Source of the DNA: Ginglymostoma cirratum | Lineage: Eukaryota | Length of the DNA stretch: 64,000 nt | NCBI GenBank assembly: GCA_024137785.1 | Contig: JAHRHZ010000016.1 | Span: 37,381,404 to 37,445,403, forward strand | Direction of reading: 5' to 3' | Shown: positions 16,405-59,344 of the stretch, piece after piece | Layout of the letters: each line of letters starts with the position of its first letter | Position numbering within the stretch: the first letter of the stretch is position 1 | Notes under the pieces: generated by a model | Databases searched by the model: none | Told to the model about the DNA's origin: nothing | The model's input: the letters and a program-made list of their open reading frames with translations, nothing else | Program-made: the position numbers and the translations under genes

Positions 16405-16625
16405 GAGCTTGTTGACTTGCTCACCGAGCGGCTTGTTTTCATTCAGACATTTCATCACTATCCTAGGTGACATCATCAGTGAAGCCTCCGATGAAGTGAT
16501 GTTATTCTGCTCCACTTAGAATTTAAACTGCCTGCCATTATGGTGAGTAATGTCATTACTGGTTTTGATCTGTATGGGCTCGTACATGGGGCCCAATTCA
16601 ATATGTTTGTTGATTGCATATTACA
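16405..16625 (-). mobile_element. Second Penelope-like family (C), 3' end
   Basis: Minus strand encodes AINKHIELGPMY (PLE ORF-end motif like AINKHIDL.P.Y), followed by a hammerhead motif. Confidence 0.7.
16442..16483 (-). ncRNA. Minimal hammerhead ribozyme motif (family C)
   Basis: UUCA-CUGAUGA-U-GUCAC(CUAGGAUA)GUGAU-GAAA-UG-UC-UGAA: 4-bp stem I, 5-bp stem II, intact core. Confidence 0.75.
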
Positions 16626-17418
16626 TGCTTGTAAAACATGTTACTGCAGCATATTACAGAAATTACGTTGAAAAATGTGCAACACTCTTGGTTGGATTAT
16701 TGCTTTAGGTATGAAAATAATTTGTACATTTGGAAGATTCTATGCATTATTCATTGCACTGCAACCATAATATTCAATTTGATTCAAAATACCCCATAAC
16801 TATTATGCAACTCAAATAGTTAATTTATGGACCTCATTTGGTTTTACTCAGTTATTTTTACAGCATTATCTTGTGTAAGAAATGTTTGGAAACTTACAAA
16901 ATAATAATGTTTGTGATTGCGTCAGCAACTCTGCAAAGGTCAAAGGTAGTTACCTAAAGTTTCGATCATTGAGTTGCTACTTCCAGTTGTTACATAAATC
17001 TGACTTTATTATATTCCACATGATGGTTACTCTGAGTTGTCAATTCCATTTTCACCTTGCATTTTTTTGCAACATAGGAATCAAAATATTTAAATAAGTT
17101 GTTTGTCTTAATTGGCATTGTTGACAGTAAGCCTAGTGACATTGATTGTAACAACCAGCTATCCACCAATTAAAGCTTTATAATTACTTTACAGTGGAAT
17201 CCCCATTACTGTACTTTCCAAATTTTGTAGCACAATGGCCTGAGCTACATTGTCTCATCACAGAATCTATACTTTTCTTCATGTCTCATCTGTTTTTTGC
17301 TAAACAAATGCACATACTATTTGAGATAAAAGGTACTGCAGATGCTGGAGGATCCGAGATAACAAGCATGGGGCTGGATGAACACAGGATGTCAAGCAGC
17401 ATCATAGGAGCAGGAAAA

Positions 17419-17452
17419 CTTGACGTTTCGGGCCTAAACCCTTCATCAGAAA
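17419..17452 (-). ncRNA. Minimal hammerhead ribozyme motif (family A)
   Basis: UUU-CUGAUGA-A-GGGUUUAGGCCC-GAAA-CG-UC-AAG. Confidence 0.75.
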
Positions 17453-17464
17453 AGGGTTTAGGCC

Positions 17465-17864
17465 NNNNNNNNNNNNNNNNNNNNNNNNNNNNNNNNNNNN
17501 NNNNNNNNNNNNNNNNNNNNNNNNNNNNNNNNNNNNNNNNNNNNNNNNNNNNNNNNNNNNNNNNNNNNNNNNNNNNNNNNNNNNNNNNNNNNNNNNNNNN
17601 NNNNNNNNNNNNNNNNNNNNNNNNNNNNNNNNNNNNNNNNNNNNNNNNNNNNNNNNNNNNNNNNNNNNNNNNNNNNNNNNNNNNNNNNNNNNNNNNNNNN
17701 NNNNNNNNNNNNNNNNNNNNNNNNNNNNNNNNNNNNNNNNNNNNNNNNNNNNNNNNNNNNNNNNNNNNNNNNNNNNNNNNNNNNNNNNNNNNNNNNNNNN
17801 NNNNNNNNNNNNNNNNNNNNNNNNNNNNNNNNNNNNNNNNNNNNNNNNNNNNNNNNNNNNNNNN
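17465..17864. other. Assembly gap (400 N), probably spurious
   Basis: The same 22-mer lies on both sides of the gap. Confidence 0.9.
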
Positions 17865-18049
17865 TCATCAGAAAAGGGTTTAGGCCCGAAACGTCAAGTT
17901 TTCCTGCTCCTATGATGCTGCTTGACATCCTGTGTTCATCCAGCCCCATGCTTGTTATTGCACATACTATTCAGTTATTGTTTGATTTTACTGGTTTACT
18001 TCCCACGCCTACATTTTTGTTGTACCAGAATTGTGGCACTCTTGATTGT

Positions 18050-18130
18050 TGAGGATGGAATTTGAACCCAGGTCCCCAAAACAATGCTTAGATCTCTGGG
18101 TTAACAGTCTAGTGATAATACCCCTAGGCT
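18050..18130 (-). mobile_element. tRNA-derived SINE head fragment
   Basis: Reverse complement of GGGGACCTGGGTTCAAATTCC; similar to 4380-4445. Confidence 0.55.
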
Positions 18131-18394
18131 TTGATAACAGGTAATGGCCTGACAGGTTGGAACTTAGCACCTGATCTCTTTATGAAGCAGACTTAGGTAT
18201 AAGTCTGAACAACTGTCAGTCCCAGGCTGGGACTGGCCCATGTACAGTGGTTAGTGTGTAATGGCCCTATTTTCATGTTCAACAGTAAACAATATTCCTT
18301 TCTAGTCAGGCTTCCCAATGCACATTGTTTCCTACGTGGCTCACTGTAGCTATCAAAATAATTTAAGTAACTGACCACTTTCAATTGACAGTTA

Positions 18395-18900
18395 CCAGGT
18401 TCAGTATGATGGAGTTCATTCCACTTGCCTTGATATATGCAACTCCAACAATGATCAAAAGCTTGACACTCTCCAGAAAAAAGCTGCTAACTTGATTGCA
18501 GCCACCATCCACCACTTTGAACATTTATTCCATTCATTACAGAAGCACAGTGGCTGCAGTGTGTATCATCTACAAGATACATTATCGTAATTTACCCAGA
18601 CTCCTCCTCTGTCACCTTCCACAACTACACCATTGGGCTGCAAATGTGCAAAACACCACCACACAATAAATTCCTGTCCCAGCTGTTAACCTTCCTGACC
18701 TGAAACTATTACATTGTTCCTTCACTGTTGCTGGATCAAAATCTTGGAACTCCTCTCCTAACAGCATTGTGGCCATTCCTCTGCCCCAAAGACTGTAGTG
18801 GTTCAAGAAGGCAATCACCACCATTTTCTTCAGTGCATTTATAGATGAACAGTAAATGTTGGGCTAGCCAGTGACAGCCATATCCCATGAACAAGTAAAT
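18395..18900 (+). mobile_element. L2/Crack-like LINE 3' end
   Basis: AAGCTTGACAC..CCAGAAAAAAGCTGC, CACAGTGGCTGCAGTGTGTATCATCTACAAG, TCTTGGAACTCCTCTCCTAACAGC, GTTCAAGAAGGC tail. Confidence 0.7.
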
Positions 18901-20439
18901 GTGTCACAATAAAACTGGTTATGTTGTTCCTGCGAACACGTCCTCTTGATGCTCCCTTCATACTGTCTGACTAACAAAGCCACTGGAGCTATATCTGTTG
19001 AAATTTTAAACATCCAGGTCTTTTGGACAATGTAGTGCAGGGCATACAAGCAAAGAATAATTTTAATAGATCCTCTTGAAAATTTGCACCTCATTATCCC
19101 CCACTCCCGCCTTATCAACCAGAGAGTTCATCATCCATGAAATCAAATAGCACACTTTGCGATCCATGTGCAAACCAGATACTTGTGAGATGAAGACCTG
19201 GATGTGGAACGGAATGTTAAGATGCTGGAGATCAGCTTTTGAAGTTATTTAGACAGAAAATTAGTACCAAAAACAAGTAAGTGAGCCCACAAAATGGAGA
19301 GAAGTGAGGTTTGCTTCTTACTATTATTCAGTATGTACACTTCATCTGCAAGGTAATTTAGACCAAGCTCTGGTTCACTGGAGTGCTTTACAATTCACCT
19401 TCGGAAATCACGCAATGGCACACGTAAAAGAGACGTAATCTAGTTCTGATCACTAGGGGGTACTATTGTTACACTTGCTGCAATCCTGAATGGATACGTA
19501 TTTTGTTCCAAATCCTGGTCATTTCACAAATGTAGTAACAGAAACCGCTTTCATTAAAAACTAAGGAAAACATAGTTGCAAACACATCTTGAAGGAAATA
19601 CTTCAAAGCAATCTTCTCGACAATGTTTCACTTTGAAGTGTAACGTTGCTGTATTTTAGTCACTTACTTGGTCACATTCAAATTCACAAGAGACAACACA
19701 CAATACACCTTTAGTTATAAATCTTGGAAACATTTAACACTTTTTCAGTCTTAAGTTTCTGGGCATCAGATAAAAATCAAGAAAAAGAATTGTTCTGAGC
19801 CTCAACCAATCTGATTACTTCATGACAACAACATTTAAACACAGTGAGAACATATTTCTTTTGCAAAAAGCTAAATAAGTGACACACAGGAAAAGCTGAA
19901 ATGCTGTAGATAGTTGACTTGTGTGCTAACTGTGAATAGTATCACCCACTTTGCAGGAATTGAGCCAATGACTGATTGAGATATTTTTTATTTAAGGGGC
20001 CAAAGAAAAAGCACAAAATGGTTCCTTTAGTGACCAGAAAGGCACTGCCAAATACTGTTCAATAGGGCTTTCAAATGCTGGGCAGATATTTACAACAGGA
20101 CAACAGTTATGGCTCCTTCATTTTACCTCAACACTCTGGGTCTGAATGGGTGAGAGAAAAATAAAATTGCTCAACCTTCTTGCTCCTGATCATAATCCCA
20201 GTGGAATGTGTGCAAGTGAAGAAGTTAGATAAACTCTGTAGTGTCAGAAAATGGGTAGCCAGATGATGAAAATCAGAACACTTATGCCCGGTTTTAATAT
20301 AATTACTTGTACAATTTTGTATTGTATAATTTTGTATTAAATAGACACACTTTCAGACTGTTCCTGTACATACTTTTAATTAGATATGGATGCCACAAGC
20401 GCTGCATTTGAAAAGGACACTATTACGCCACACACACAA

Positions 20440-20600
20440 AAAATCCCACTATTGTCGAAAGTGTTCCTGTATATATGAGCACGAGATATTTTAAATCAAT
20501 CTGTTCAGACATGTTATGACACACTGCTGGAGCAGTGAGTCTTAGACCCAGGCCTTCTGTCTAAGTGGTAGGGACACTACCACTGCACCACAAGAGCCAT
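20440..20600 (-). mobile_element. tRNA-derived SINE fragment
   Basis: Minus strand begins GGCTCTTGTGGTGCAGTGGTAGTGTCCCTAC (A-box), then a decayed B-box. Confidence 0.55.
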
Positions 20601-21394
20601 CAAATATATGACAACGAGTGAGTTCCTAATTAATACCCACCATCTGAGTGCAATTAACACTCGTGATGTGCAATCATCATAAATCAGGCTGATTTACAAT
20701 ACCCTGGGCTGCTGGGGGACATACAAGATTATCAAATATTCAAAATGAGGGGACGATGGAATGAATAAATGAGCAGAAATATGCTTACTGCAAAAGGATT
20801 GAGCTGTTTCATCCAGCCATTTAATTCATTTATAATGAGTCTTTGTTGAGCTTAATAATTATGTTTATGTTTTTTAGCTTTAATTCGTTATGGAAATTTG
20901 TCTTTTGGTTTTATTTACCAGACTTCTGTAGGATAAACATAAAAATATAGAAGGCCAAAACATCAATGAAAGCACTACACCACTCGAAGCCATTAGTTAG
21001 CTTTATCGTTAATATTTTCAAAAGTTGCTTAAAAACTGCAAAGACTTCCAACAACTGATTTTAATATTTTAATATATCAAATGATCTATTTGCCACAAAT
21101 TGGAGGACATTTTCTACATTAGTATCAAATGTCAGGATCATCTTTTTGGAGTTCTTGGCACCTGTCCAAAATGGCCTGAAGTCCAAGTTACTTTTAAATT
21201 CTAACCCCATTAATGTTTCTCCAGTAAACATCAATAGGTTTTTCAGCGCACCTAAATCTTTTCCTGCCAAATAAAATTTGTTTACTGAAAAAGCAGCCAG
21301 TTGATCATTCAGGCTGTTGGAGGAGGCAGGTTGGGACAATGATTCTGAAGTGTCAGATCAGAGGATTGTTATGACTATGGCCTTCCTACTTCTG

Positions 21395-21662
21395 TAAGCC
21401 AGTACTGTGGCTTCACAGTGCTAGGGCCCCAGGTTCAATCCCAGTCTTGGGTGACTGCCTGTGTGGAATTTGTATGTTCTGTCTGCGTAGGTTTCCTCCC
21501 ATGGACTAAAGAAGTATAGGTAAGGGGGATTAGCCGTGTTAAATTGTCCCCTCTTATGCAGGTTATGTGGTTTAGCCATGGTAAATGTGGGACGCTTTTT
21601 GGAGGATCAGCATGGACTCAGTGGGCCAAATGGCTTCTTTCCATACTGTAGGGATTCTATAA
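21395..21662 (+). mobile_element. HE1-like V-SINE
   Basis: CCCAGGTTCAATCCCAG B-box, TGTGTGGAATTTGTATGTTCT, TAAATTGTCCC, tail TGGGCCAAATGG..TTCCATACTGTAGGGATTCTAT. Confidence 0.8.
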
Positions 21663-22149
21663 AATTCTTTTTGGGAAAATAACAACTGAGTTAGTCTAGC
21701 AAAAAGGGCTCTAACTGTCTTTTAAAGAACTATTCCTAGATCTATCAAAGCCTAATGGAAGTGAAATTAGCAAGTACTGTTTCTCCATGAAACTGACAAT
21801 CAAGAGCAGAGGCGCAAATGAACTTGCTCTGTGCCAGGCATTCTTGTTTCTGGGGCTGATCTGGGATAGAGTGCAGAACTGAAGGCCATGTGATTAAATT
21901 GGGAAGTTAAAAATAAAATTCAACACAGCAAATATTTCTTTAAAGAATGTTAGGGAAGAGTAAGCACCAAAGGGAAAATATATAATATTGTTTTAAAAAT
22001 AGCTGAAGTAAAGCTATGGAAAAAAATATGAAATTGGCAGAACAAATCTACATTGGAATGAAATAAAAGGGATCATTATTAAACAAGTCACAGTTTTATT
22101 GTAAAACAAAATGAATTACTAGAAAAACCTAGGTATTGTAATCAGCCTT

Positions 22150-22283
22150 TTTTTCTGAAGAAGGGTCTAGGCTCGGAACGTCAGCTTTCCTACTCCTCTG
22201 ATGCTGCTTGGCCTGCTGTGTTCATCCAGCTCTACACCTTGTTATCTCAGATTCTCCAGCACCTGCAGTTCCTACTATCTCTC
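22150..22283 (+). mobile_element. Single-arm family-A PLE terminal repeat, hammerhead core mutated
   Basis: TTCTGAAGAAGGGTCTAGGCTCGGAACGTCAGC..CACCTGCAGTTCCTACTATCTC. Confidence 0.85.
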
Positions 22284-22840
22284 CCAAATGCTACAGGCAT
22301 TACAGCTGGGAAAGACAACTAAAAGGATAACTAGAACAAATAAGCAATGGAAACAGATTCATGGGATGCAATGACAAGGACATACTGATATGCTTATGAA
22401 GCATTTTTGAGGGGGATAAGATGCTGCATTGAAACAGAAATTGTTATTTTATACCAGACACACACTGTGTGGAATGAAACAAAGAACTGCAAATGTTGAA
22501 GCCTGAAGCAAGAACAGAAAGTGCTGCCAAAACTTCTGTGGGAAGAAAGCAGAGTGAACGTTTCAAGTCCCATGGCATTTCATCAAAACTGATGGCAACT
22601 AGAAAAAGAGCTGTACATATGATGAAGACAACATAGGCATTAGGGTGTGGTGGGGGTATGGGGTGCAGGGTGGAATGGGAGAGGTGAGTGGGCAGGTGGA
22701 GATGGAACCCAGAGAAAGAGAGAGAGATATGAAAGGGGCAGTAAACAAAGAGATTCTAGATAGCAGGTCAGTGCAAAAGAAACAAAAACAGAAGTTGCTA
22801 CGACAGCTCAACAGGTCTGGCTGCATCGCTGAAGAAAAAT

Positions 22841-22880
22841 CAGTTAATGTTTCGTGTCTGGTGACCCTTCGTCAGAACTG
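22841..22880 (-). ncRNA. Minimal hammerhead ribozyme motif (family B)
   Basis: CAGUU-CUGACGA-A-GGGUC(ACCA)GACAC-GAAA-CA-UU-AACUG: 5-bp stem I; one mismatch in stem II. Confidence 0.65.
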
Positions 22881-22975
22881 ATGGTAGCTAGGAAAATGTT
22901 GGTTTATATGAAGTAGACACGGGTCAGGAGTAAACAATAGGTGGAGATAGAACTCAAAGAGAGATAAGACCATCA

Positions 22976-23382
22976 GAGATAAAAGGTACTGCAGATGCTG
23001 GAGAATCCGAGATAACAAGCATGGGGCTGGATGAACACAACAGGTTAAGCAGCATCATAGGAGCAGGAAAACTTGACGTTTCGGGCCTAGACCCTTCATC
23101 AGAAATGGGGGAGGGGAAGAGGGTTCTGAAATAAATAGGGAGAGAGGGGGAGGCAGATAGGGGATGGATAGAGGAGAGGATAGGTGGAGAGGAGGCAGAC
23201 AAGTCGAAGAGGCGGGGATGGAGCCAGTAAAGGTGAGTGTAGGTGCGGGGGTAGGGAGGGGATAGGTCAGTCCAGGGAGGACGGACAGGTCAAGGGGGCG
23301 GGATGATGTTAGTAGATAGGAGAGGGGGTGGGGCTTGAGGTGGGAGGAGGGGATAGGTGAGAGGAAAAACAGGTTAGGGAGG
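22976..23382 (-). mobile_element. Young family-A PLE 3' UTR plus terminal repeat inserted in an older PLE; intact hammerhead motif at ~23072-23105
   Basis: Reverse complement of 15390-15770; minus strand reads UUU-CUGAUGA-AGGGUCUAGGCCC-GAAA-CGUC. Confidence 0.9.
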
Positions 23383-24254
23383 TAGTTGGATAACAAAGGA
23401 GTTGATAACGATTTGGCTAGGAGGGCAAATTGCTGTTAATAGGGATTGTGAGTGACTAACAATAGGTAGTGTGCAATGGCAGACTATCACATAGTCTATT
23501 CCCAATATTGTAATTCCCAATATTGTAATTGCACGGGAAGGTGTTGTGGAAGTATGAGGAGGTTTTGGGAATAGATGAGTGTACCAGATGTCCCAGTTGG
23601 AATGGTCCTTGCAGAATGCTGACAAGGGAGGGAAGGGGAATATGTGTCTGGTTGTCGTATCCCATTGGAGATGACAGAAATGTTGGATTCCATTCTTTTG
23701 GATATCGAAGCTGGGTGGGGTGATAATTGGGTAGAACCTGGCCTCGTTGACCATGGTAGCAGAGAATCCTTAGTTAAGGAGAAAGGTGAACATTTCTCAT
23801 GCTTGCCTGCAGAAGGTGGCATCATCAGAACAGATGCGATAGAGATGGAGAAGCTGGGAGAATGTGATGTAGTCCGTAATGGAAGCAGAGTGTGAGGATA
23901 GATAGTCCAGGTAACTGTGGGAGTTGATGGGTTTGTAGTGGATATTAGTGGTCAGTCTATCCCCAGAAGTGGAAACAGAGATATCGAGAAAGGGTAAGGA
24001 GGGGTCAGAGAGGGGACAGGTGAAGATGAGAACAGGGTGGAAATTGGAAGCAAAATTGACAAATATTTCCAATTCAGAACGAGAGAGGGAAGCAGCATTG
24101 TTGATGTCATCAATGTTCTAGAGAAAGAGTTGTGGAGAGGTACTAAGTAGGATTGGAACAAGGAATGTTCGACATACTCCTCAACGAGACAGGCATAACT
24201 GGGGCCTCTGTGTGTGGAATTGAGTCAATGCTTTTGAATACTATGCTTTTGAAT

Positions 24255-24612
24255 CATGAGAGGTATAGACAGGATGGATAGCAAGAAGCTTTTTCCCAGA
24301 GTGGGGGACTCAATTACTTGGGGTCACGATTTCAAGGTGAGAGGGGAAAAGTTTATGGGAGATATGCGTGGAAAGTTCTTTACGCAGAGGGCTGTGGGTG
24401 CCTGGAACACGTTGCCAGCGGAGGTGGTAGACGCGGGCACGATAGCGTCATTTAAGATGTATCTAGACCGATACATGATTGGGCAGGGAGCAGAGGGATA
24501 CAGATCCTTGGAAAATAGACGACTGGTTTAGATGGAGGATCTGGATCGGTGCAGGCTTGGAGGGCCGAAGGGCCTGTTCCTATGCTGTAATTTTCTTTGT
24601 GCTTTGTTCTAC
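24255..24612 (+). mobile_element. Young CR1 LINE 3' end
   Basis: MRGIDRMDSKKLFPRV..GH.FKVRG..RGKFFTQR.V.AWN.LP.EVV.A.TI.SFK..LD; tail GGGCCGAAGGGCCTGTTCC; CpGs retained. Confidence 0.92.
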
Positions 24613-25919: not shown

Positions 25920-26265
25920 GAAACAAACTTAGAAAGTGCTGCAGAAATGCAGCAGGTCTGGCAATATTTGTGAAGAGAGAAACAGAGTTAAGGTTTTGAG
26001 TCCAATATGACTCAATTTTCGGAAAAGTTCTGAGGAAGAGTTATATCCTGCTCTGGGCGAGTCCATCTTTAGATCCTAATAAGGTCAAACATGTCATTTC
26101 TAGCTCCTGATATTCTTAATAGTTATATCCAACTGGCCAATATAACTTCTACCTATAATAGAACAAAGAACAATGGAAGGTGGAGATCTGAAACAGAACC
26201 CAAAATTGCTGGGGAGACTCATTTCTGTTTGTTTCAAATCTCCAGCATCTACAGTTCTTTGTTTT
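25920..26265. mobile_element. Old PLE terminal-repeat fragments (family B-like) in mixed orientation
   Basis: GCAGCAGGTCTGGCAATATTTGTG..AACAGAGTTAA (25945-25995) and an internally deleted fold-back at 26165-26262. Confidence 0.55.
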
Positions 26266-27350
26266 CAGTCACAGAATCATGCAGTATGGAAACAGACTCT
26301 TCGGTTCAACTAGTCCATGCTGAATATGTTCCCAAACTAAACTAGTCCCACTGGCTTGTGTTTGACCCATATCCCTCCAAACCTTTCCTCCTCATGTACT
26401 TTTCCAAAATGTTCATTCCACACATGAACCACTCTCTGTGTAAAAAAAGTTGGCTCTTGTGCTCTTTTTTAAACTTTCTCCTGTCACCTTAAAAAAATAT
26501 GCCCTCCAGTTTTGAACTCCCCCACCCTTGGGAAAAGATCTTTGCTGTTCAACTTATCACGTCCCTCATGATTTTATAAAAGTCAGTAAGGTCACTTCTC
26601 AACCTCCTACACTCCGGTAAATAAAGTCCCAGCCTATCCAACCTCTTTTTTTTTAACTCAAACCCCTATTGCTGGCAACATCCTGATAATTTTTTTCTGA
26701 ACCCTTTCCAATTTAATAATATCCTTCCTATAGCAGGGTGACCAGAAACGTATGCAGTTCTCCAGTCAAGGCCTCACCAATGTCCCGTACAACCTCAACA
26801 TGACGTCCCAACTCCTGTACTCAAAAGTCTGAAAAATGAAAGAAAGCATGCTAAACGCCTTATTCATCACACTGCCTACCTGCAACTCTACTTTCAAAGA
26901 ACTATGAACTCCTAGGTCTCTTTGTTTGGCAACACTCCAAGACCCTACCATTTACTGTATAAGTAGTGCCCTGGTTTGCCTTACCAAAATGCAACACCTT
27001 ACATTTACCTAAATTAAACTCTATCTGCCACTCCCTGGCCCAATTGCCTATCTGATCAAGGTCCCATTGTACTCTCAGATAACCTTCTTCACAGTCCACT
27101 GCAAGACCAGTTTTGTTGTCATCTGCAAATTTATTAACTATACCTCTTATATTCACATCAAATTATTTATGCAAATGACGAAAAGCAGTGGACCCAGTAA
27201 CAATCCCTGCAGCACCCCGCTGGTCACAAGTCTCCAGTCTGAAAAACACCCCTCCATCACTATTCTCTGTCTTCTACCTTCAAGCCAATTTTTTATCCAA
27301 TTGGCTGGTTCCCCTGGATCCCATGTGATCTAACCTGATGAACTAGTCAT
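26266..27350 (-). mobile_element. CR1 (HER1-like) LINE, RT 3' half and tail
   Basis: SGVLQGLLLGPL, NKFADDNK, W..EWQIEFNLGKCKVLHFG, LYGTLVRP. Confidence 0.92.
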
Positions 27351-27351
27351 C

Positions 27352-28045: not shown

Positions 28046-28099
28046 CAGCATAGAGTTTTAGGTTTTGCAGGCTATAATTCATCTAAGAATAAAGAAGTC

Positions 28100-34520: not shown

Positions 34521-35622
34521 TCATTTGGATACAGAACTGCCTTGTAGGTGAGAGACAAAGCCAGGTGATAGAGGGTCACTTTTTCAGACTGGAGGCCTGT
34601 GACCAATGGTGTGGCACATAGATTGGTGCTGGGTCCACTGCTTTTCATCACTTATATAAACAATTTGAATGTGAACATAGGAGGTATGGTTAGTAAGTTT
34701 GCAGATGGCACCAATATTGGTGGTGTGGTGGACAGCCAAGAAGATTGCCCCAGAATACAACAGGACTTTGATCAGATGGACCAATGGGCTGGGGAGTGGC
34801 AGATGAAATTTACTTTAAATTATTGTGAGGTGCTGCATCTTGGAAAGTCAAATCAGGGCAGGGCTTATACACTTAATGATAAGTTCCTGGGAAGTATTGC
34901 TGAACAAAGAGACCTTGGAGTGCAGATTCATAGTTCCTTGAAAGTGGAGTTGCAGGTAGACAGGACAGTGAAGAAGGCATTTGGTATGCTTGCCTTTATA
35001 GGTCAGTTCATTGAGTATAGGAGTTGGGAGGTTATGTTGAGGCTGTACAGGACATTGGTTAGGCCAATATTGGAATACTGTGTTCAATTCTGGGCTCCGT
35101 GCTGTAGGAACAATGTTGTGAAACTTGAAAGGTTCAGAAAAGATTTACAAGAATGTTGCCAGGATTGGGGGGTTTCAGCTAAAGGCAGAGGCTTAATAGG
35201 CTGGAATATTTTCACTGAAGCATCGATGGCTGAGGGGTGGCCTTATAGAAGTTTATAAAATCTTGACGGGCGTGGATAGGGTGAATAACCAAAGTCTTTC
35301 CCCAGGTTAGGGGAGTTCAAAACTAGAGGGCATAGGTGTAAGATGAGAGGGAAAATGTTTAAAAGGGACTTAAGGTGCAACTTTTTCACACAGAGGGTGA
35401 TGTGTGTATTGAATGAGCTGCCAGAGGAAGTGGCAAATGCTGGTACAATTACAACATTTTAAAAACATCTAGATGGGTACATGAATAGAAAGAGTTTAGA
35501 GGGATATGGGCCAAATGCTGGCAAATGGTACTAGTTTAATTTAGGATATCTGGCTGGTATGGACAAGTTGGTCTGAAGGTCTGTTTGCATACTGTACAGC
35601 TCTGAGACTTTATGACTCTATG
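34521..35622 (+). mobile_element. Younger CR1 (HER1-like) LINE nested in the tail of an older CR1
   Basis: ORF 34599-35258: VLGPLLFITYINNL, SKFADGT, WQMKF..CEVLHLG, LYRTLVRPILEYCVQFWAP. Confidence 0.95.
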
Positions 35623-36272: not shown

Positions 36273-36459
36273 GAGATAGTAAGAACTGCTGATGCCGGAG
36301 TCAGAGATGACAGTGTGGAGCTGGAGGAACACAACAGGCCAGGCAGAATCAGAGGAACAGGAGGCTTGATGTTTCAGCTCAGGAAGGGTCCTGCCCTGAA
36401 ACATCAACTCTCCTGCTCCTCTGATGCTGCCTGGCCTGCTGTGTTCCGCCAGCTCCACA
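36273..36459. mobile_element. Older palindromic PLE-derived insertion with 15-bp TSD
   Basis: Arms TGTGGAGCTGG..GATGTTTCAG and CTGAAACATC..CCAGCTCCACA; ATGAAGTAACACTGA at 36258-36272 and 36460-36474. Confidence 0.88.
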
Positions 36460-36834: not shown

Positions 36835-37645
36835 TCATAGAGTTACAGAGTCATAGAAGTCTACAGCCGGGAAACAGGCCCTTCAGTCCAACTTGCCCAT
36901 GCTGCCCATTTTTCACAATTTAAACTGGTTCCATTTGCTTGCATTTGGTCCATATCCATCCATGCCTATCTCATCCATGTACCTGTCTAAATGTTTCTCA
37001 AATGACAAAATTGTACTTGATTCCACCACTACGTCTGCCAGCCCATTCCAGACACTAACCACCCTCTGTGTGAACAAATTGCCTCTCTCGACCCTTTTGT
37101 ACCTCTCCCCTCTCACTTAAAACCTGTGCCATCTCATTTTAGATTGCCCTACCTTGGAGAACAGCTGTTGGCTATCTACCTTATCTATGCCTCATGATTT
37201 TATAGACCTCTATCCTTGTTCAATCTCCTACGGTCCAGGGAAAAAAAGCCCCAGCCTATCCAACCTCTCGTTATAACTCAAACCTTCCAGTTCAGGTAGC
37301 ATCCTAGTAAATGTTTTCTGCATTCTTTCTAGTTTAATAATATCCTTTCTCTAGTAGGTCAACCAGAACTACAAGCAGTACTCCCAATGTGGCCATACCA
37401 AAATCTTGTACAACTGCAATAAGATGTCCCAACTCCTATACTCAGTGCTCTGACAGATGAAAGCAAGCATGCTGAAAGCCTTTTTCACCACCCTGTTTAC
37501 CTGTGACTACATTTTCAAGGGCGTATGAACCTGTACCCCTTGATCTCTTTGTTCTATAACACATCCCAGAGTCCTACCATTGGCTGTGTAAGTCCTGCCC
37601 TGGTTTGCCTTACCAAAATACAACACCTTGCATTTATCTAAATCA
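36835..37645 (-). mobile_element. CR1 LINE 3' portion
   Basis: RGNLFTQRVVSVWNGL..VVES.TI.SF.KHLD; CATAGAGT-type tail. Confidence 0.9.
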
Positions 37646-38527: not shown

Positions 38528-38541
38528 TCAATTTCCTTCCT

Positions 38542-39193
38542 AGATAACAAGCATGGGGCTGGATGAACACAGCAGGTCAAGCAGCATCATAGGAGCAGGA
38601 AAACTTGACGTTTCGGGCCTAAACCCTTCATCAGATTTCTGATGAAGANNNNNNNNNNNNNNNNNNNNNNNNNNNNNNNNNNNNNNNNNNNNNNNNNNNN
38701 NNNNNNNNNNNNNNNNNNNNNNNNNNNNNNNNNNNNNNNNNNNNNNNNNNNNNNNNNNNNNNNNNNNNNNNNNNNNNNNNNNNNNNNNNNNNNNNNNNNN
38801 NNNNNNNNNNNNNNNNNNNNNNNNNNNNNNNNNNNNNNNNNNNNNNNNNNNNNNNNNNNNNNNNNNNNNNNNNNNNNNNNNNNNNNNNNNNNNNNNNNNN
38901 NNNNNNNNNNNNNNNNNNNNNNNNNNNNNNNNNNNNNNNNNNNNNNNNNNNNNNNNNNNNNNNNNNNNNNNNNNNNNNNNNNNNNNNNNNNNNNNNNNNN
39001 NNNNNNNNNNNNNNNNNNNNNNNNNNNNNNNNNNNNNNNNNNNNNNNNTCTTCATCAGAAATCTGATGAAGGGTTTAGGCCCGAAACGTCAAGTTTTCCT
39101 GCTCCTATGATGCTGCTTGACCTGCTGTGTTCATCCAGCCCCATGCTTGTTATCTCGGATTCTCCAGCATCTGCAGTACCTTTTATCTCTGAT
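38542..39193. mobile_element. Palindromic family-A PLE-derived insertion with 14-bp TSD and two divergent hammerhead motifs, spanning a gap
   Basis: TCAATTTCCTTCCT at 38528-38541 and 39194-39207; intact cores at ~38604-38637 (-) and 39063-39093 (+). Confidence 0.9.
38649..39048. other. Assembly gap (400 N) at palindrome centre
   Basis: Run of N; flanks are reverse complements of each other. Confidence 0.95.
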
Positions 39194-49570: not shown

Positions 49571-49696
49571 AATGACGGCAACACTTGGATCAGTGGGAGG
49601 CTACTGAGACAATGTAAGTGGGGTTGGTTCATCTCCTATAAGTATCTTGTAATCCTCAGGAAAGTCAGTCAGTCAACCAACCTGCTACATTGGGAC

Positions 49697-50612
49697 TTAG
49701 AGTTACATGGCACGGAAGTAGGCCATTGGAGCCAACTTATTTGAGCCAAAGAGATATCTCAATCTGATCTAGTCCCATTTGCCAGCATTTGGCCCAAAAT
49801 CCCTCTAAACTGTGCCTAAGCATCCATTCAAATACCTTTTAAATGTTGTAACTTTGTACATCTCCACCACTTCCCCTGGCAGCTAATTCCACACATTCAT
49901 CACCCTCTGCATGAAAAAGTTACCCCTCAAGTTCTTTTTAAATCTTTCCCTTCCATCTTAAACCTATGTCCTCTAGGCTTGGACTCTCCAACCTGAGGAA
50001 AAAGTCCTTGGCTGTTTACACTATCTATGCCCTCATGATTTTATAAACTTCTATATGGTCACCCCTCAGCTACCTATGCTTTAGTGAAAAAAGTTCCATC
50101 CCATCCAACGTCTCCTTATAACTCAAACCCTCCAGTCCCAGAAACATCCTGGGAAATATTTTCTGCATGCTCTCCAATTTAATAATATCCTTCCTTCGGC
50201 AGAGCGACCAGAACTGTACACAATTCTCCAAAAGTGGCCTCACTAATGTCCTGCACATCTACAACATGATGTCCCAAATCCTATGCACAATGGTCTGAGC
50301 AATGAAGGCAAGCATACTGTCTACCTCTGGTACTCAGGAACTATGTACCTGAACCCCTCAGTCTGTCTGTTCGACAACACTATCCACGGCCCTACCATTA
50401 ACTCCATAAGTCCTGTCCTTTTTTTTGTCTTACTGAAATGCAATACATCCCATTTATCAAAAGTAAATTCCATCTGCCACTCCCCAGCCCACTGGCCCAA
50501 TTGATCAAGATCCCTTTATAATCTTGGATAACCTTTTTCACTATCAGCCATACCACCAATTTTGGCATCATCTGCAAACTTACTAACCATGCCTCCTAAA
50601 TTCTCATCCACA
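49697..50612 (-). mobile_element. CR1 LINE 3' portion
   Basis: SKFADDAKIGG, RTLVRPLLENCVQFWS, GLEGLSYKE. Confidence 0.92.
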
Positions 50613-51614
50613 CCAGAATCAAGATTTTTTGTTGCTATCTATTATTCCTGGAGTACTTGCTAAAGGGAACACTGAGGTTATGACTGCCATTGATAAAGCA
50701 AGCTGATTTAGTTTGAAATATTCTCAACTGGTTAGCCATCCATTTGCAACTTTGAGTTAACCCTTTTCCCAATCAAGAAGGTGAACACATTGTTAATAGC
50801 TGTGAAGAAGCCTTCACAGTTCCAGCAAAAATGTGCATTTTTTAAAAAAACACTGCTTTTGATAGAAGGCTGTTGATCCTTTTTGAAATTAATGCCATTA
50901 TTTGGAGATAGTACATAATATTTGGTACTGTCAATACCTGATTCACTGAAAACCAGTTGATTTTTCCAGTAACCATTCTTTGTCACATAGCTGAACTTTA
51001 AAAGAGTATTTGACATTTGTTCAGAAAGAAAATAATCACTCTGCTCTTGTCAACTGCATGAATCATGAATGCTTTCAGTTCAGCTGTTCTTGGTGCATAT
51101 TATTAGATCTATGCTTTTTGTAGGTTTTTTCAAAGTCACGCTTTGTTGCTAATGGACCTGGATCAATAGAAAAAGTAACCTGAGACAATACTTTAATATG
51201 AAATAAGGCAACATGGCAACAGTGACTGAGGATATTTGCCATGGACAATCATAGGAGTTAGTAGTAAAATATAGAGGCTGATAAATAGCTGATATGTGAT
51301 TAGTTAGGGTGGTTGATGGTGAGTGCTGTACTTCTGTAAGAAATACTAGGGAAAATTCTGATATTAGAATGGTGGGGAGGGGTGTAAAGGGTTGGCATTC
51401 TTGGGGGGCTAAGTGTGCATTGAAAACTGAGTTGAAGCAGGCTGCTGTTGTGAATAAAAGATTCACAGATTTAATACCTAATAAGGAATGAGAGCTCATT
51501 ATTCATCAAGAGGTATGCGTAAGTGACACATTATACATAATATTATGGCATTAAATAATGTCAGCAAGTTACTGAGTGTCAGTATGATTTCAAATAAATC
51601 ATTTTAGTTCATCA

Positions 51615-52205
51615 CCACATTCATTCCTCAAGGCACTGGAGCAGTACCACCAACATTGCCCCTGCAAGATCCTGAGAATACCCTGGGAAGAAAGCTACAC
51701 CAACACCAGGGTCCTGATCAGGCCAACATCCCAAGCATCGAGGCACTGACCACCTTTGATTGTCTGCGATGGGCTGGACCTATTGTCCACATGACTGACA
51801 CAAGACTCCCCAAGCAGGTGCTCTACTCCCAGCTACGAAACGGCAGGCAAACTCCAGTTGGAAAGAGGAAGCTCTTCAGGGATACCCTCAAGACTCTACT
51901 GGTGAAGTGCAGCATTCCCACAGACACCTGGGAATCACTGACCCAAGACTTCCAAAGAGAAGGAGGAGCAACCAGGAAGGCATTGAGACTTGCCATCATG
52001 ATAAAATGGAAGCCAGGCGAAAACAGCAAAAGATGTGCACTGCCACACCAATGCCCCACCCACCCGTTCTAGTGACCATCACCTGCCCCAAGTAGAACAG
52101 AGCGTGCGGTAGCCACATCGGTCTGTACAGCCACCTATGGACTCACCACAAGAGTGTAAGAGAGCCATCCTCAGCTGCAAGGGACCACCAACAATTATGA
52201 TGATT
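51615..52205 (+). mobile_element. RTE-clade LINE 3' end
   Basis: LRWAGPIVHMTDTRLPKQVLYSQLRNG..GKRKLFRDTLK; C-terminal CP..RAC.SHIGLYSH. Confidence 0.9.
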
Positions 52206-52509
52206 TTTCTAAAATGAAAATGATTTTTTAAGAATCTTTACAATGATAATACCTCTAGACTAGAACAAGCACGTTGGAGAAATTTGTATACAAATATTAG
52301 CTTTTGCATTTATATCTGTTGTAGAGTGGAAAATCTTTGTGCCTTATTCCCTATATCTATTTGTAGTGCAGTATATTGTTATGATCACATTGTAAAGGAT
52401 GTCAGTATTGTATTATTGTGTGAGGACATGCATATCATGTACAGAATGAACAAATGGAGCAGAAAGTTGATATCACTGTGTCCCTTAAAATGATACCATC
52501 ATTACTTTC

Positions 52510-54428
52510 TGAGATACTTTTTATTCATTGAGAGATTATCAATGCTCTACACAAATATCAGTCACATTGTTTCAATTGAAGGATGTGAATTAGGAAGCTT
52601 TCCAAATAAATCTGAGTCGAGCAGGCTGCTCTGTCCTTTTTGTGTGTTCAAGCCTCTTGCTGAATCCCTCAGAAAGGATATGGTCATCAGAGAAGTGACT
52701 ATTCAAGGTATTGGAGGCACCTGTTGCCATCTTCTGCTCAGATCCACTATTGGTTTGTAGACTGATAGGATGCAGATGCCAATTTGAAAGGACATTGGGG
52801 GCCATGCTAATCGAGAGAAGAGCAAAACCAAGTACTCTGACTGATCCTTTGTCTCCTTTGTCAACAGGTTAGTTTACCTGAAAGTGCTTTAATAGACGTT
52901 AGATATGATTAGAGTAGCTGTGACATCTAAGAATCGAGTAGCAGTGATTAACCGAAAGCTGGCAGGAGGGATCATTGCTCCTTCTCCATTGTGTAGAAGA
53001 GCCTGGTCATCAAGTGTAAAGCACTCTGTGTTGTTAGACGTGGTGCAGGCAAATCCTGCAATCCTCATTCTTGCATTGTCACAATCATTTGAGTCCCCTT
53101 TGGCTTTATCTGGAAGTTGAAAACAGATTGTGTTTACAGAGATATCAAATACAAATCTCTAAGCGAAGGTGAATAAAACACACCTAAGATTTTCTGATGA
53201 AGGGTCTAGGCCCAAAACGTCAGCTTTCCTGCTCCTTTGCTGCTTGACCTGCTGTGTTCATCCAGCTCTTCACCTTGTTATCTCACCTAGTGTAACCTTC
53301 ATCCTGATGTCCAGTGTACTCTCCCAGTATGTAAATATCAAATGTAACTGCGTGCTAAGGTTCTTCTTGTCCCTGGTGTTGGGAGGATGGATCTGGTCAC
53401 ATTGCTGCAGGACACTCCAAGTAGTTGGATAGTGCTACACTACTGCCTCTTATGGAGAGGTTAATGCAGGAAAATACATTGACCACAAGTCTATCTCACA
53501 GTGATCGGCATGGAACATCCTTGAAGCCCTGTCAGTAAATGAGACTGTAGATCCTGCCAAATAGTTCCTTGAACTGACTGTCCAAGTCATCAGGCAGAAT
53601 GCCAAATCCCTAGAAATTACAAATGGGCACCATAGCTCAGCTTGGCTAGCGATGAGAAAGGTCCTTACTAGCAAATACACTCTGAACAACCAGATTCTTA
53701 ACTCCTCTACACATGGCTGTTGTGATGGGGAAGAGACTTGTTCACCTTCTCGTGAAAAATGTTTTTGTAAGGAAGGTCTTGGAAGAGATACAACAGTTTC
53801 TGTCATGGTTCATTCCACACAGTTTTGTGGGGCAGAGCTTCATGCACTGCAAAAAAATTCCAGGGTCGCGCATGGAGAAAAGTACAAACTGCACATAGTG
53901 GGCCATCATCTCAATGAAAGATGCTCTTATATCTGTCCTAGACCTGCTGGTCTTATAGTGAAAGGTATTGCCCTCGACTGATTGTTACAGACTATCACAT
54001 TTCAAGTTGCAAGACTGCATTGCTGAGGGATTAATTTGGGGTAACTATTGCAGAGGCACAATCGGGAGAAGTCACTTCCTAAAATCTTTCAGCCATCGTA
54101 CACCAGTAGGCTGGAAACTTCAGAGCCCCTTGGGCAGTGTGCCTTACAAAGCATGTATGCTCTGAATCAAGAGTATTGAAAATATATTGAGACACCTGAG
54201 AACATAACATGATGTATATTTATTAGAAGTGTTGTAATTTTCAATGTGGAACGTTTTGCTCTCAAGTTGTACACCTGGCATGGAATGCATTTTGTAAATA
54301 ATGAATCTATGACAGTTATATTGAATGTAACATTCTGTATGGGGACAAGTTGAATGTTGTCGCAAATTTTGTAAGATTCAAATAATTCTTCAGACATATT
54401 TGATGAATAAAGTGTATTTTGAGGAAAA
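52510..54428 (+). mobile_element. L1/Tx1-clade LINE ORF2 remnant with 3' end
   Basis: LYTNISHIVSIEG.E..SFP.KS..R...F.PLAESLRKD..IREVTI.G.GG; QNA.S.EITN.H..SAWL.MR; zinc-knuckle GC.GEET.VHLL; ends TGAATAAAGTGTATTTT. Confidence 0.85.
53187..53283 (+). mobile_element. Single-arm family-A PLE repeat inserted in Tx1, possible 6-bp TSD
   Basis: TTTTCTGATGAAGGGTCTAGGCCCAAAACGTCAGC..; CACCTA at 53181-53186 and 53284-53289. Confidence 0.85.
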
Positions 54429-54445
54429 TGAAGAGAGACTGTCAA

Positions 54446-55859
54446 TGTAATGCTAAATTAAGGGCAGGATTTGTTCCTGTTCCTTATCCCTTTGGTAACT
54501 GGACTGAGATTATCTTATTGATCTTAGAGAGAATTGTTGAAGTGAGCCATAAGAGGATGTTTCGATTCCAGCAGCCCGGATTATGTTAAAACTTGAATTC
54601 CAGGCATGAAAAGTAAAGTGTTGACTTTGAGCACTGGAGATTTGCTGTTTTGATCAGAATTTGTGTGATGGCAGAAAACCTAAGGTCAAAGCTTGGATGC
54701 TTACTTTATCACAGTCACCTTTTATTTATTCCAGATTTTCTTTTTTACAAATTTCACTTAGAATTTATGCCTTAAGAACACTAGTCTGAGGTTTTAGGTT
54801 ACTCATCCTTTGCTTTACTGTTATGTTTTTTTTGCCCCCGTGAGTTAGATCAGCAAGAGAACAGAATGCAGTGAAGGATGTGTGGCATATAGATTCACAT
54901 AATTTATGTTAGAATTTGAATTTTAAACTGGTGACTTATGGAAATTGTGAAGAGATTTAAAAATTAACCAGCTCAGTCTTTCTGGAACCATGATTTAAAA
55001 CCAGTATTTATCAAATAACAGGTCTGCAAGCCTCTTGGATATTAATGGAAACAGACTTACACTGTGACATTGCCTACAAGAGACAGAAAACATTAAGCCA
55101 TCAGCTTTATCATAATTAAAGGTGAATAATTTTCTAAAATTTAGTTCAAAAGCTTTTGAGTTGAGTTTGAAAGTGACCCAACTGGTATCAGAACAAGTAT
55201 TGGCTCTCCCAGAAAAGGAGTTTTTTCAAATCAGTTAAGGAATAAGTTACATTCGTAAAAGTATTTAGTTTGTGAAACTTAAAGACCAAGAATGTCTGAA
55301 TTAAAACCTGTATTGGTTATTCAAAACTGAGAAAATCTGAGATCTTAGTTGCGTGAATAGTTAAGAGAAAAGACCTCACAGCTCATCGGACAAGACCTGC
55401 AAACAAACACTTTAGCCATACCTATAGATTTGACAGAGAAGGAAATTTTCTCTGCACATTGATTAATTATAAAATGTGTTATTGAGTAGTAGATGGGATT
55501 TCATTTTGGCATGGGTTTTGAAATCTTTCAAACTGTTTCACATTTAGATGGCTTCCAAAGAAGTGTCTTATTGACTCGAAACATCAATTTTGTTTCTTGA
55601 TGGATACTGTCATATCTTCTGAGTTGTTCTGACTCTTTTTGTATTTATTCTTATATTTTAATAGCTTGGTTTGTTTTAATTCATTTTTCTATGTTTAATA
55701 ACCATCTGTTTTATTGTTGAAAACAAATATGCAACCTTGTTGGTATTTGTGTTTCAATGAAAGGATTTGCTTTAAATAAGAAAAACACAAACATGATCTA
55801 CCAAAACAGCTTTCATTCCAGGATTTGACTTGACCATTACGTCAGCTGGGATCATAACA
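54446..55859 (+). mobile_element. Possible old solo LTR containing small SINE/PLE fragments
   Basis: Begins TGTAATG and ends GGGATCATAACA (TG..CA, imperfect terminal inverted repeat); no TSD found. Confidence 0.3.
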
Positions 55860-56279
55860 AGGGGATGAGGTAGGTGGGTAAGGGCATATGTTGGGAGTTG
55901 CCAGGTGGGTAGGATGGTGGGTGGGAAGGGTAGTGTTGTATTTGCGCCAATTACCACTGCTGGCATCTTATGATATCTGCCCACTCCTTTTAGTATGTGA
56001 CATAGTGTAAAGGTTGTTTGACGCTGCTATGTGCTACCAGTCCCCCTTTGTTTCTTCTGTGCCTAGGGCCCATCAAATGATACAATACCACAGGTCCTTG
56101 CCAAAAGAGGCTTCGTTAGAAGTTAATAAGTTGGTTTATTGCATGATGACAATAAGTTCAACTGAATCGTTACTGAGTCATAATTACAAAGGATTCTCAG
56201 GAGTTGAATTAATATTTCCGCTTCCAGTGAAGACTAGTGAAAAACTCAGTGTCTCTGTCCAAATAGTATATAATACTTC

Positions 56280-56410
56280 AGAGATAATAGGAACTGCAGA
56301 TGCTGGAGAATCTGAGATAACAAGATGTGGAGCTGGATGAACACAGCAGGCCGAGCAGCATCATAGGAGGAGGAAAGCTTGATGTTTCGAGCCTAGACCC
56401 TTCATCAGAT
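56280..56410 (-). mobile_element. Single-arm family-A PLE terminal repeat with hammerhead motif
   Basis: Minus strand AU-CUGAUGA-AGGGUCUAGGCUC-GAAA-CA-UC-AAG. Confidence 0.88.
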
Positions 56411-57459
56411 TAGGTGGGGCTAATGCAAATGTGACATTAGCACTGTCAGAGCTATTATTTTCTACAACAGGTATGGTGAAAGAGTGGAGGAAGGCTGGAT
56501 GAGGGCTTAAGGGAGGTCAGGGAGAGTTGGGTGGTTGCAAAGATAGGTGCAGTCAAGAGGGAGGTTGTAGTCAGAGGTGGGGTTAGACATAGGGGAATGT
56601 GTCAGAGGGGAGTCTAGAGAGATTGGGGGAAGCGGCCAGAGACCAATGGGCATTACGGTGAATCAGCAGGGACCTACAGTCAGAGACAACTGCAGTTGGG
56701 GTTGTAGTGTTGGGTTTGGTTCTAGGACATAGAGTCAGGCAGTTTGGGTCAGTTGGGATGATGTCAGACTGAGGGACATGTTTGGTGTGTACGTGTGTGT
56801 CCATCCATCTGTCCATCATTCCTTACTTCCTTTGGCTTATATCGATGGCCAAAATCAAAATGAGTTTCTCAGTGTCCATTAAGGATAAGGAGATCATTGG
56901 CAGGTCAGACAGTCAATTTAATAATTACCCTGGAGTTAGGATAGGGTTTAGTTCCTCTAGCATTTCCTGACTAACAATTAGGCCAAGTGGTTGGAATCAT
57001 CCAAAGCCTGAGTGTTTCAGACGCCAGGTAATTCCCTGTTAGAAGTTTCAACTTCTGGACATATGCAGTTAGCAGCACTGAGATTTCTGCATGTCTTGTT
57101 GCAAAACTCCTGTCTATGTTTTTGCAAGACAATCTTGCGTTTGGAATGTCTGGGTCATTGTAAGTATTTGCATTCATATTGCATCTTGAATACTTGATAT
57201 ATTTATATTGGGACTTAATTTTTATTCTATTATGTACTGACTTTCTGAGTGCAATTCAACAGAAATCGGAGACCAGCAACTGAGTTTAAAATATAAATTG
57301 ATTTTCTGTGATATTTCTGCAACAGAGGACTAAATGTGTGTTAAAGAACAGAAGTAACACACAATAGACTGAATCAAGTGATCCCAACGATCAATGGATC
57401 AGATCAAAGCTCTGTAATCCCACCACGTGCAGTCATCGAGAACCATCCCCATTGAATAA

Positions 57460-58200
57460 AAAACTACCAAGTGGCAAGTAAAATGCACACAGCTACATGG
57501 AAATGAGCATCTGTAACAAAAGAGTCTTTAACATTTCCCCCTAGCATTCAAAATTATTACCGTTACTGAATTCCTTCATTGTGAACATTCTAGAGTTTCA
57601 ATTGACCAGAAACCCAACCGTACTGTGACTATAGGAGTGGGTTAGTAACGGGACTTTCTGGTGCAACTTACCTCCCAACCCCCCAAAATCTGCTCACCAT
57701 ATGGCATACAGAAGTAATGAATATTAGGAAATACTGTTGACTATGTGGCTCACATAGCCTTCAAAAATCTCAGCAACATCCAGGCCAAAGCTACCTGCTT
57801 GATCCCTACCCTGTCTATAGTTCAAACATTCGCTCCTTCTACCAACTTTACACAGTTACAGCAGCCTATACCATCACAGGATGCACTGCAGCAATTCTTT
57901 CAACCTCATTTACACCACCTTTCAAACATGTGAACTCAACCACCTATAAATTCAAGGGCAGAAGACACATCAATACACCACTTAGTCATTCCCCTCCACA
58001 CCACACTGATTTGGAATGATATTACCATTCCTTCATTGTTGATGAGTTAAAGTCCTGGAACTCCATTCTTCATGACACTGGATGGACCTATACCAGGTGA
58101 AATGCAGCAATTCAAGAAAGTTGTTCACCTTTATCTTCTCAAATGTAATTATATTGTGGACCACAAATACAGCCTTGACAGTAATATGCATATCTGAAGA
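57460..58200 (+). mobile_element. L2/Crack-like LINE 3' region, degenerate
   Basis: KWQV, NIL.V.IDQK, CAACATCCAGGCCAAAGC, AAAGTCCTGGAACTCC; similar to 18395-18900. Confidence 0.65.
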
Positions 58201-58211
58201 CATAGAGATTT

Positions 58212-58402
58212 GAAGTGGAGGAAGTGATGGAGGTGGGCACAATTACAACATTCAAAAGGCATCTGGATGGGTATGTGAATACGAAGGGTTTAGAGGAATG
58301 TGGGCCAAATTCTGGCAAATGGGATTAGGAAGTTTTGGATGTCTGGTCAGCACGGACGAGTTGGATCAAATGGTCTGTTTCCATGCAGTACGATTCTATA
58401 AC
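58212..58402 (+). mobile_element. CR1 LINE 3' tail
   Basis: GAGGAAGTGATGGAGG..ACAATTACAACATTCAAAAGGCATCTGGATGGGTAT; like 35420-35610. Confidence 0.85.
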
Positions 58403-59168
58403 TCTTTTTCTATAAGTCTCTTTCTACTACTCTTTTGTGCTAGTTCAAAAACAAATTGGACGAGACGTAGTCTTCACTGACCAAATAAGCCAATTTCCCA
58501 TAGAAAATCAGTAGAAAATTTTGTTAATTGTGTTCGTTTGAAGACTTGGAAAGGGTTCTGTGACTGAAAATATTTTAATGCAAAGACACTAGTGAGTATG
58601 TTTTAAAGTTTTAAATTTTTTTAAAAGTTTATTAAAAAATTGGCTATTGAATTCCACTATAGCTTATAAATAGTTTAATGTATTTAACAATAATGGTTTA
58701 TGAGCAGGTGAAGAATTTGTACTGTAATTTAGAGTTGCTTAATTTGTGTAGTAAACATGTTTTCAACAGTATGCATTGAATAATAAATAAATCTTCAATT
58801 CTATTAGAATCAATTAGACCGCAGGACAGACATGTTCCTTTGAAAATGAAGGACAGGAGTAGCAGGATAAAGGAACCTTGGATGACAAGGGAAATTATTA
58901 GCTTAGTCAAAAACAAACATACCTAAGATCTCAGCAACTAAAAACAGACAAAGTCCTTGAAGAATATAGAGGAAGTAGGAAGGAGCTCGAATGGGGAGTG
59001 AGGAGTGCTAAAAGGGGCTATGAAATGTCCTTGGCCAGCAGGGTCAAGGAGAAACCCCAAGGCATATATGAGAAGAAAGAGGGTGGTTGGGGAAAGAGTA
59101 GTCCAGCTCAAGGACAAAGGAAGGATGTTATGTGTAGAGCCAGAGTAAATGGGTGAGATCCTTGATGA

Positions 59169-59344
59169 CCAGGCGTGGGGCTGGATGAACACAGCAGGAC
59201 AAGCAGCATCATAGGAGCAGGAAAACTTGACATTTCAGGCCTAGACCCTTTCTGATGAAGGGTCTAGGCCCGAAACGTCAAGTTTTCCTGCTTCTATGAT
59301 GCTGCTTGGCCTGCTGTGTTCATCCAGCCCCACGCCTTGTTATC
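59169..59344. mobile_element. Fully assembled palindromic family-A PLE-derived insertion (176 bp) with 15-bp TSD
   Basis: ~80-bp inverted arms; TGAGATCCTTGATGA at 59154-59168 and 59345-59359. Confidence 0.93.
59249..59282 (+). ncRNA. Minimal hammerhead ribozyme motif (family A)
   Basis: UUU-CUGAUGA-A-GGGUCUAGGCCC-GAAA-CG-UC-AAG; predicted cut after C59279. Confidence 0.75.

Follow-up and report, generated by a model that had tools for sequence, protein, structure and literature searches.

Minimal type-I hammerhead ribozymes (min-HHRs) have been described in the pseudo-long terminal repeats (pLTRs) of metazoan Penelope-like retrotransposons (PLEs), including the Xena, Poseidon and Neptune elements of fish (Cervera & de la Peña 2014, PMC4209133). 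They have a palindromic 15.2-16.2 without stem III, an extra nucleotide separating position 9 from 10.1, a G10.1-C11.1 pair and a helix I of 4-5 bp; no cleavage is reported for the monomers and a low one for the dimers. Several covarying families occur per genome, mostly as single truncated copies, with pairs on opposite strands 100-700 bp apart. In the green anole's Poseidon element PAc (Frangieh et al. 2024, PMC11167929), the ribozyme cuts only with the protein of the element, insertion uses the uncut RNA, and two internal starts of the reverse transcriptase (RT) make the tail. The Neptune/Nematis elements (Craig et al. 2021, PMC8557442) are marked by a CX2-5CxxC linker joining the RT to a C-terminal GIY-YIG domain, and the non-LTR retrozymes (bioRxiv 10.64898/2026.07.22.740005), with one chondrichthyan genome sampled, are head-to-tail tandem arrays with a type-I hammerhead in pLTR-derived sequence. 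The present report concerns hammerhead motifs in a 64,000-nt stretch of the Ginglymostoma cirratum genome (contig JAHRHZ010000016.1, positions 37,381,404 to 37,445,403, forward strand), referred to as the window. Nothing on point about PLE ribozymes in cartilaginous fishes was found in the literature searched, which lacked most subscription papers and Repbase and whose supplements may cover sharks.

The motifs of the window are minimal hammerheads located in the 3' pLTRs of PLEs. The favoured explanation, with a probability of about 0.85, is that they lie in 5'-truncated pLTR copies, that the fold was likely selected in the source elements and that the copies seen here are likely inert. The likeness to the published min-HHRs extends to the core, the extra nucleotide, the G10.1-C11.1 pair, the palindrome, the covarying families and the opposite-strand pairs. 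The class, its anatomy, the covariation across families and the idea of a dimer have been in print since 2014, and this finding adds members, not a kind. This genome offers usable material for testing the role of PLE hammerheads in vivo, namely very many copies, their insertion ends and a dimer helix in which ACGU is naturally exchanged for AGCU.

The original prediction had placed eight motifs in the window, six in a repeat family A and one each in families B and C, and all eight were recovered at their positions. A strict descriptor (core, one extra nucleotide, stem II and GAAA-NN-UH) returned exactly these eight matches, compared with a mean of 0.07 and a maximum of 1 in 200 dinucleotide shuffles. 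Every one of them contains the type-I core (CUGANGA ... GAAA ... UH) enclosed by stems I and II. When the offset was left free (0-2), a single extra nucleotide before stem II, as had been proposed, was best for the six A copies and for C, that is in 7/8; the B copy, with a stem II mismatch, was absent from the list of that scan. The stems given for B (CAGUU/AACUG) and C (UUCA/UGAA and GUCAC/GUGAU) are as described, and the bracketed base of GAC(C)C in B is the family letter at 22855, present in 675/711 and 686/742 reads. The G.A mismatch in stem II of the B copy is private, since nearly all the RNA reads of the family are without it. The weak stem I ascribed to family A (UUU/AAG) exists in three of its six copies, the others (38634, 39063 and 56408) having a single pair left. 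The motif GAAA-(CG)-UH is not shared by all, contrary to what had been stated: CG is found in 5/8 copies, CA in B and A-56408, and UG in C. A cmscan of the window against Rfam, one of the checks suggested for these motifs, yielded no match to a hammerhead family up to an E value of 1. The copies and the elements that carry them are as follows:

16442..16483, minus strand: minimal hammerhead of C1 with a predicted cut after 16446 and a palindrome that has decayed to AUGU; the stop codon of the open reading frame (ORF) is the core U4-G5-A6
16404..16638, minus strand: 5'-truncated Poseidon-type PLE with the end of the GIY-YIG ORF, the hammerhead and the first part of the tail (tblastn; blastn to the near-full-length copy L297)
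17419..17452, minus strand: A hammerhead in the short pLTR copy 17322-17456, with an inversion junction on its 5' side
22841..22880, minus strand: B hammerhead, predicted cut after 22846, stem I of 7 bp, palindrome decayed to ACAU
22778..24206, minus strand: decayed Neptune-type B element split by an A insertion, with RT remnants at 24206-23740 and 23682-23565 and the 3' untranslated region (UTR) at 23487-23384 and 22972-22778
22973..23383, minus strand: young A copy (97% identity to other copies) lying inside the older B element, in its 3' UTR
23072-23106, minus strand: A hammerhead, the most intact of the window (stem I of 4 bp, CG palindrome), predicted cut after 23075
38542..38635, minus strand: A pLTR arm without tail, hammerhead 38604-38634 with stem I lost, head-to-head with the 39062..39189 copy
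39062..39189, plus strand: A pLTR arm with tail, hammerhead 39063-39093 with stem I lost
56281..56409, minus strand: solo A pLTR, hammerhead 56378-56408, palindrome decayed to ACAU, stem I lost
59176..59353, plus strand: head-to-head A pair made of a partial inverted arm (59250-59176) and a direct arm with the hammerhead (59249-59282)

The abundance of the motif was estimated from eight 100-kb blocks picked blind, four of which were entirely N and were dropped. The 380 kb of non-N sequence contained 30 strict matches, compared with 0-2 in 20 shuffles, or about 79 per Mb; extrapolation to the assembly (4.36 Gb) gives a number of the order of 10^5. Around the window (G000:C16:37181401-37645403), the families account for 38 motifs on the plus strand and 23 on the minus strand. 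A relaxed scan of the collected loci, which include 29 further loci per family from searches of the same genome, gave 374 motifs: 117 A, 61 B, 45 C1, 38 C2, 35 D, 3 E and 75 unclustered. Three of these families are additional to those of the window, namely D (L211-L240), E (L126, L181 and L186) and C2 (L241-L270).

The original prediction had drawn an analogy with the minimal hammerheads of PLEs. The link to these elements rests on the ORF encoding RT and GIY-YIG upstream of the motifs. A match to the A protein lies upstream of 42/117 A copies and 21/61 B copies (with a mean identity of 49% for B), and a match to the C protein upstream of 42/45 C1 and 32/38 C2 copies. In a check that does not depend on the motif, with loci selected only by an RT fragment, the C hammerhead was present about 1.3 kb downstream in 16/30. 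The ORF behind the A copies has RT motifs and a GIY-YIG domain, the latter with a Pfam match and the former with a weak match to RVT_1; among the 120 longer homologs listed, most combine the RT with PF28514/PF26215 and some have GIY-YIG too. For families D and E, weak PLE protein matches occur upstream in a few copies. The D copies share up to about 960 nt of upstream sequence, and in 2/35 of them such a weak match is plausibly placed.

Families A and B are related, and the claim of three unrelated families was therefore abandoned. In both, the ORF ends about 260-300 nt before the core, the DNA can be aligned through the core, stem II and about 40 nt of the tail, and the protein has a CX4CX2C linker (CNRRKCYTC in L088 and CKHRRCNTC in L060) that is absent in C (L007). 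They also share with the Neptune/Nematis elements the C-terminal GIY-YIG, the 5' truncation, the inverted 5' copy and the optional tail of 30-40 bp (PMC8557442). From their sequences, A and B are assigned to one lineage of Neptune type (Neptune or Nematis), and C is assigned to the Poseidon type. The closest named relatives of C come from a bamboo shark (58%) and from flukes, in keeping with a cartilaginous fish as the probable host. The window thus holds two independent witnesses of the structure, not three. In a search for full-length A elements, 1/30 loci (L309) has a same-strand hammerhead that may belong to a 5' pLTR of the element itself, across a stretch of unresolved bases; at two other loci the motifs belong to separate insertions. 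A dense cluster of A and D copies was observed at L182:1524-3440, in which a head-to-head pair has been locally duplicated.

The evidence that the fold was conserved comes from the stems that the relaxed scan did not demand, namely stem I and the letters at 15.2-16.2. The majority strands of stem I differ from family to family and yet pair: AUUU/AAGU in A1 (4 bp in untruncated copies), AGUU/AACU in B, UUCA/UGAA in C1, CUGCA/UGCGG in C2, AACAC/GUGUU in D and AGUC/GACU in E, which gives a helix I of 4-5 bp in these six. Strands of the same family pair at 26/30 positions, the best of 720 permutations (mean 13.5), and at 14/15 for A1, C2 and D alone. In a random draw of 33 copies from six families, 82.4% of the cells are paired as against 52.4% after shuffling and 29-41% in slid controls, with a covariation score of 0.766 versus 0.256. 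The first pair of stem II is G-C or G-U in 108/117 A, 56/61 B and 42/45 C1 copies; helix II has 4-7 bp here, compared with 7-8 in the Schistosoma families (PMC4209133). The palindrome of A, B, C1 and C2 is CG, or the TG/CA to which it decays; in 33/35 D copies it is GC. It is self-complementary or CpG-decayed in 282/299 family copies as against 37/75 unclustered matches. The reduction of stem III to a palindrome thus stands at the level of the family, with the qualification that the palindrome has decayed in 3/8 of the copies of the window. The two-sided swap from ACGU to AGCU in D is what an intermolecular stem III predicts. As judged from these alignments, the covariation between families is real, in agreement with the original prediction; A and B taken alone provide one two-sided change, in an alignment with one pair of stem I off by a column. 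A comparison of the core with the tail within families (0.966 versus 0.919 in A, 0.912 versus 0.923 in D) was rejected as evidence of selection on the inserted copies, because the queries held the core and mixed subfamilies.

Several observations weigh against this explanation. Stem II and the core were demanded by the descriptor, so that their conservation is partly circular, and the families are kin, so that ranks among permutations cannot be read as probabilities. The number of two-sided pairs observed (10/11) was also reached in 339/500 shuffles. Individual stems also depart from the model: position I.3 of C1 is an uncompensated C.A in 19/45 copies, stem I of A2 has only 2 bp as compared with a helix I of 4-5 bp in the min-HHRs (PMC4209133), and a C.C mismatch occupies stem II.4 in 21/35 D copies. 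Among the six copies folded, the minimum free energy (MFE) structure of the monomer matches the hammerhead stems for B alone, and no homodimer MFE structure is the stem-III dimer. Finally, read ends do not pile up at the cut site among the 51,449 poly(A) reads that align to the A/B stretch, a weak test since the library was fragmented and unstranded. The structure was most likely selected in the source elements, the copies of the window being in decay: the core and palindrome are kept in 37/71 A and 4/34 B copies covering the motif, and CpG-type decay is seen in single copies.

In active source elements, cutting by the ribozyme would be slow and would require a second copy as well as the help of a protein. 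As suggested by the literature, the ACGU (or AGCU) palindromes of two copies in one tandem transcript would pair into a shared stem III of 4 bp, and the protein of the element would help folding. By analogy with the min-HHRs, the motifs of the window would require a dimer as well. The energy of the palindrome duplex is 3-4 kcal/mol, and the folding results together imply that any cutting would need help. The nearest A pairs of the window are head-to-head and could not provide a same-sense partner; they would rather form long hairpins than dimers. RNA reads were examined for A and B. Family A sequence accounts for 51,449 of 12.9 million poly(A) records, and 89% of these 51,449 run on into unlike sequence. 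The 15 joints listed of 217 include no splice joint of the D. virilis kind, which lies at the 5' edge of stem I. The available text on PAc likewise reports no reads ending at the cut site (PMC11167929).

The ends of the insertions bear on the question of any use of cut RNA. Unselected sequence (835 kb) gave alignments that start at the stretch of the cut site (+25..+31 relative to C3) in 8/126 cases for A and 3/58 for B, as against 48/126 and 29/58 at -7..+1 and one each in -40..-8; a few B copies cross-match the A query in these counts. The integrated copies would thus derive mostly from uncut RNA, and the likely role of cutting would then be in the processing or regulation of the transcript and not in setting the insertion ends. 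In both A and B, the match to the element is 0.74-0.80 at -3 and drops at -4, where it is 0.29-0.48. This 5' edge, 3 nt upstream of the core, is common to the short copies of both families and is often the axis of a head-to-head pair; examples are found in the window (17322-17456, 38542-39189 and 59176-59353) and at the unselected loci L111-L210. Strand-switch joints occur in RNA reads at the same place (23101-23109). Family C has no such edge (9 ends, from -140 to -571). The 5' end of an RNA, a nick in the pLTR of the element itself and short master elements are candidate causes. That the edge reflects capped transcription from an initiator A (-4) was considered but is unsupported, since the cap-G signature is absent (1/26 for A, 8/18 for B, p = 0.1) and the edge lies at -3. 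Nothing on point about the -3 edge or the edges of solo pLTRs was found in the literature searched, with the same reservation about supplements. The 3' ends of the A copies fall into two groups, at about +76..100 and about +126, and the head-to-head pairs have mostly one arm of each.

In family C, the hammerhead is embedded in coding sequence. The frame of the endonuclease runs to C3 and stops at U4-G5-A6 in 34/42 C1 and 25/32 C2 copies. Two direct hammerheads are separated by 2,512, 2,513 and 2,379 nt at three loci, and the near-full-length copies L289, L294 and L297 have broken reading frames. The first residue of P0127, a homolog from a fluke, falls on A9-U-G10.1 when aligned with L297, which places the beginning of the ORF at hammerhead stem II, as in PAc; the cut site comes 28 nt after the AUG, compared with 26 in PAc, and C and PAc both have two 3' ends that delimit a tail. 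The position of the start codon was known from PAc (PMC11167929). The stop codon of the upstream unit of C falls within the core, leaving no UTR. The 2,513-nt unit is wholly coding, its stop and start codons overlap in the core, and the extra nucleotide of the ribozyme is here the U of an AUG. Such a stop overlap in PLE hammerheads was not found in the same literature, whose supplements may cover it. The overlap may not be general: a bamboo-shark protein (P0121) reads a few residues past LHRRL.

A joint reading of the copy ends and of the C overlap can be tentatively proposed, although it is judged unlikely: the ribozyme would mark the 5' edge of the RNA and work as an off switch and not in maturation, the A and B copies being run-off products and the C core being the stop/start overlap UGAUGAUG. 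In A and B, reverse transcription would have its priming site at the tail of the upstream pLTR, run off the uncut RNA 3 nt above the core and leave 'strong-stop' copies of roughly 100-130 nt in the genome. In C, where the tandem unit of 2,513 nt has no UTR, a cut 28 nt after the AUG would strip it of its start codon. If this were true, a fossil record of this size would allow the function of PLE hammerheads to be tested from genomes.

Other explanations of the same data were considered. The fold could have been kept as a signal for protein binding or priming, with overlapping duties such as start and stop codons or promoter, and rarely or never cut in vivo. The scarcity of 5' ends at the cut site, the lack of a read-end pile-up, the presence in the C core of stop and start codons and of residues also found in a fluke homolog, and the insertion in vitro of catalytic mutants of the anole element (PMC11167929) all fit this possibility. 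It is nevertheless rated quite improbable, because A and B, where the core codes for nothing long and lies about 260-300 nt behind the ORF, have kept the same catalytic core, and because the anole ribozyme does cut with its protein and is partly rescued by the C3G/G8C exchange (PMC11167929). It is likewise improbable that the short copies are non-autonomous elements, similar to retrozymes or short interspersed elements, that spread via ribozyme-cut circles instead of being truncations of full PLEs. About 40-50% of the A and B copies do share one common 5' edge, and pLTR-derived retrozymes have been described in vertebrates (bioRxiv 10.64898/2026.07.22.740005). Retrozymes, however, form tandem arrays, while the copies of the window are dispersed, nested or head-to-head, several with remnants of the ORF. 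Their ends lie at -3 and in the tail and not at the cut site, so that they are not monomers defined by cleavage, and in many pairs the tail is present on only one of the arms, as in PLE insertions (PMC8557442).

Even less credible, and rated very improbable, is the co-option of one or more copies of the window for cutting a host transcript. Poly(A) RNA is rich in family A sequence and the copy at 23102 looks intact, but the A reads come from all copies and cannot be tied to one locus, the motif is present at a high density throughout the blocks sampled, the core and palindrome have often decayed, and no intact partner of the same sense lies near 23102. Minimal hammerheads in truncated PLE copies, selected in their source elements and now decaying, remain the preferred explanation.

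Beyond the eight motifs, about ten additional A and B fragments were found in the window, including the following:

15112..15750, plus strand: A2 copy with a GIY-YIG remnant, hammerhead at 15675 with a mutated core
22152..22281, plus strand: solo A2 pLTR with a mutated core; a similar one lies at 53191-53285
36273..36457, strand not assigned: old head-to-head A pair whose hairpin gives the only Rfam match (MIR533)
7520..7665, plus strand: solo B pLTR with a mutated core
4550-4670, 22531-22628 and 25931-26003, all minus strand: partial B copies

The MIR533 match (36321-36452, E 4.7e-06, 43.8 bits for a gathering score of 80) was rejected, as it corresponds to the inverted pLTR pair; such pairs are a likely source of false microRNA calls. 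Three runs of N are present in the window, each 400 long and each touching pLTR sequence, and the length of 400 recurs at other loci. Decayed fragments of long interspersed elements (LINEs), which we take from their motifs to be CR1/L2-like, lie at 34572-35579, 26493-27246, 36880-37642, 49867-50610 and 60450-61093. Some of these LINE fragments are inverted relative to one another.

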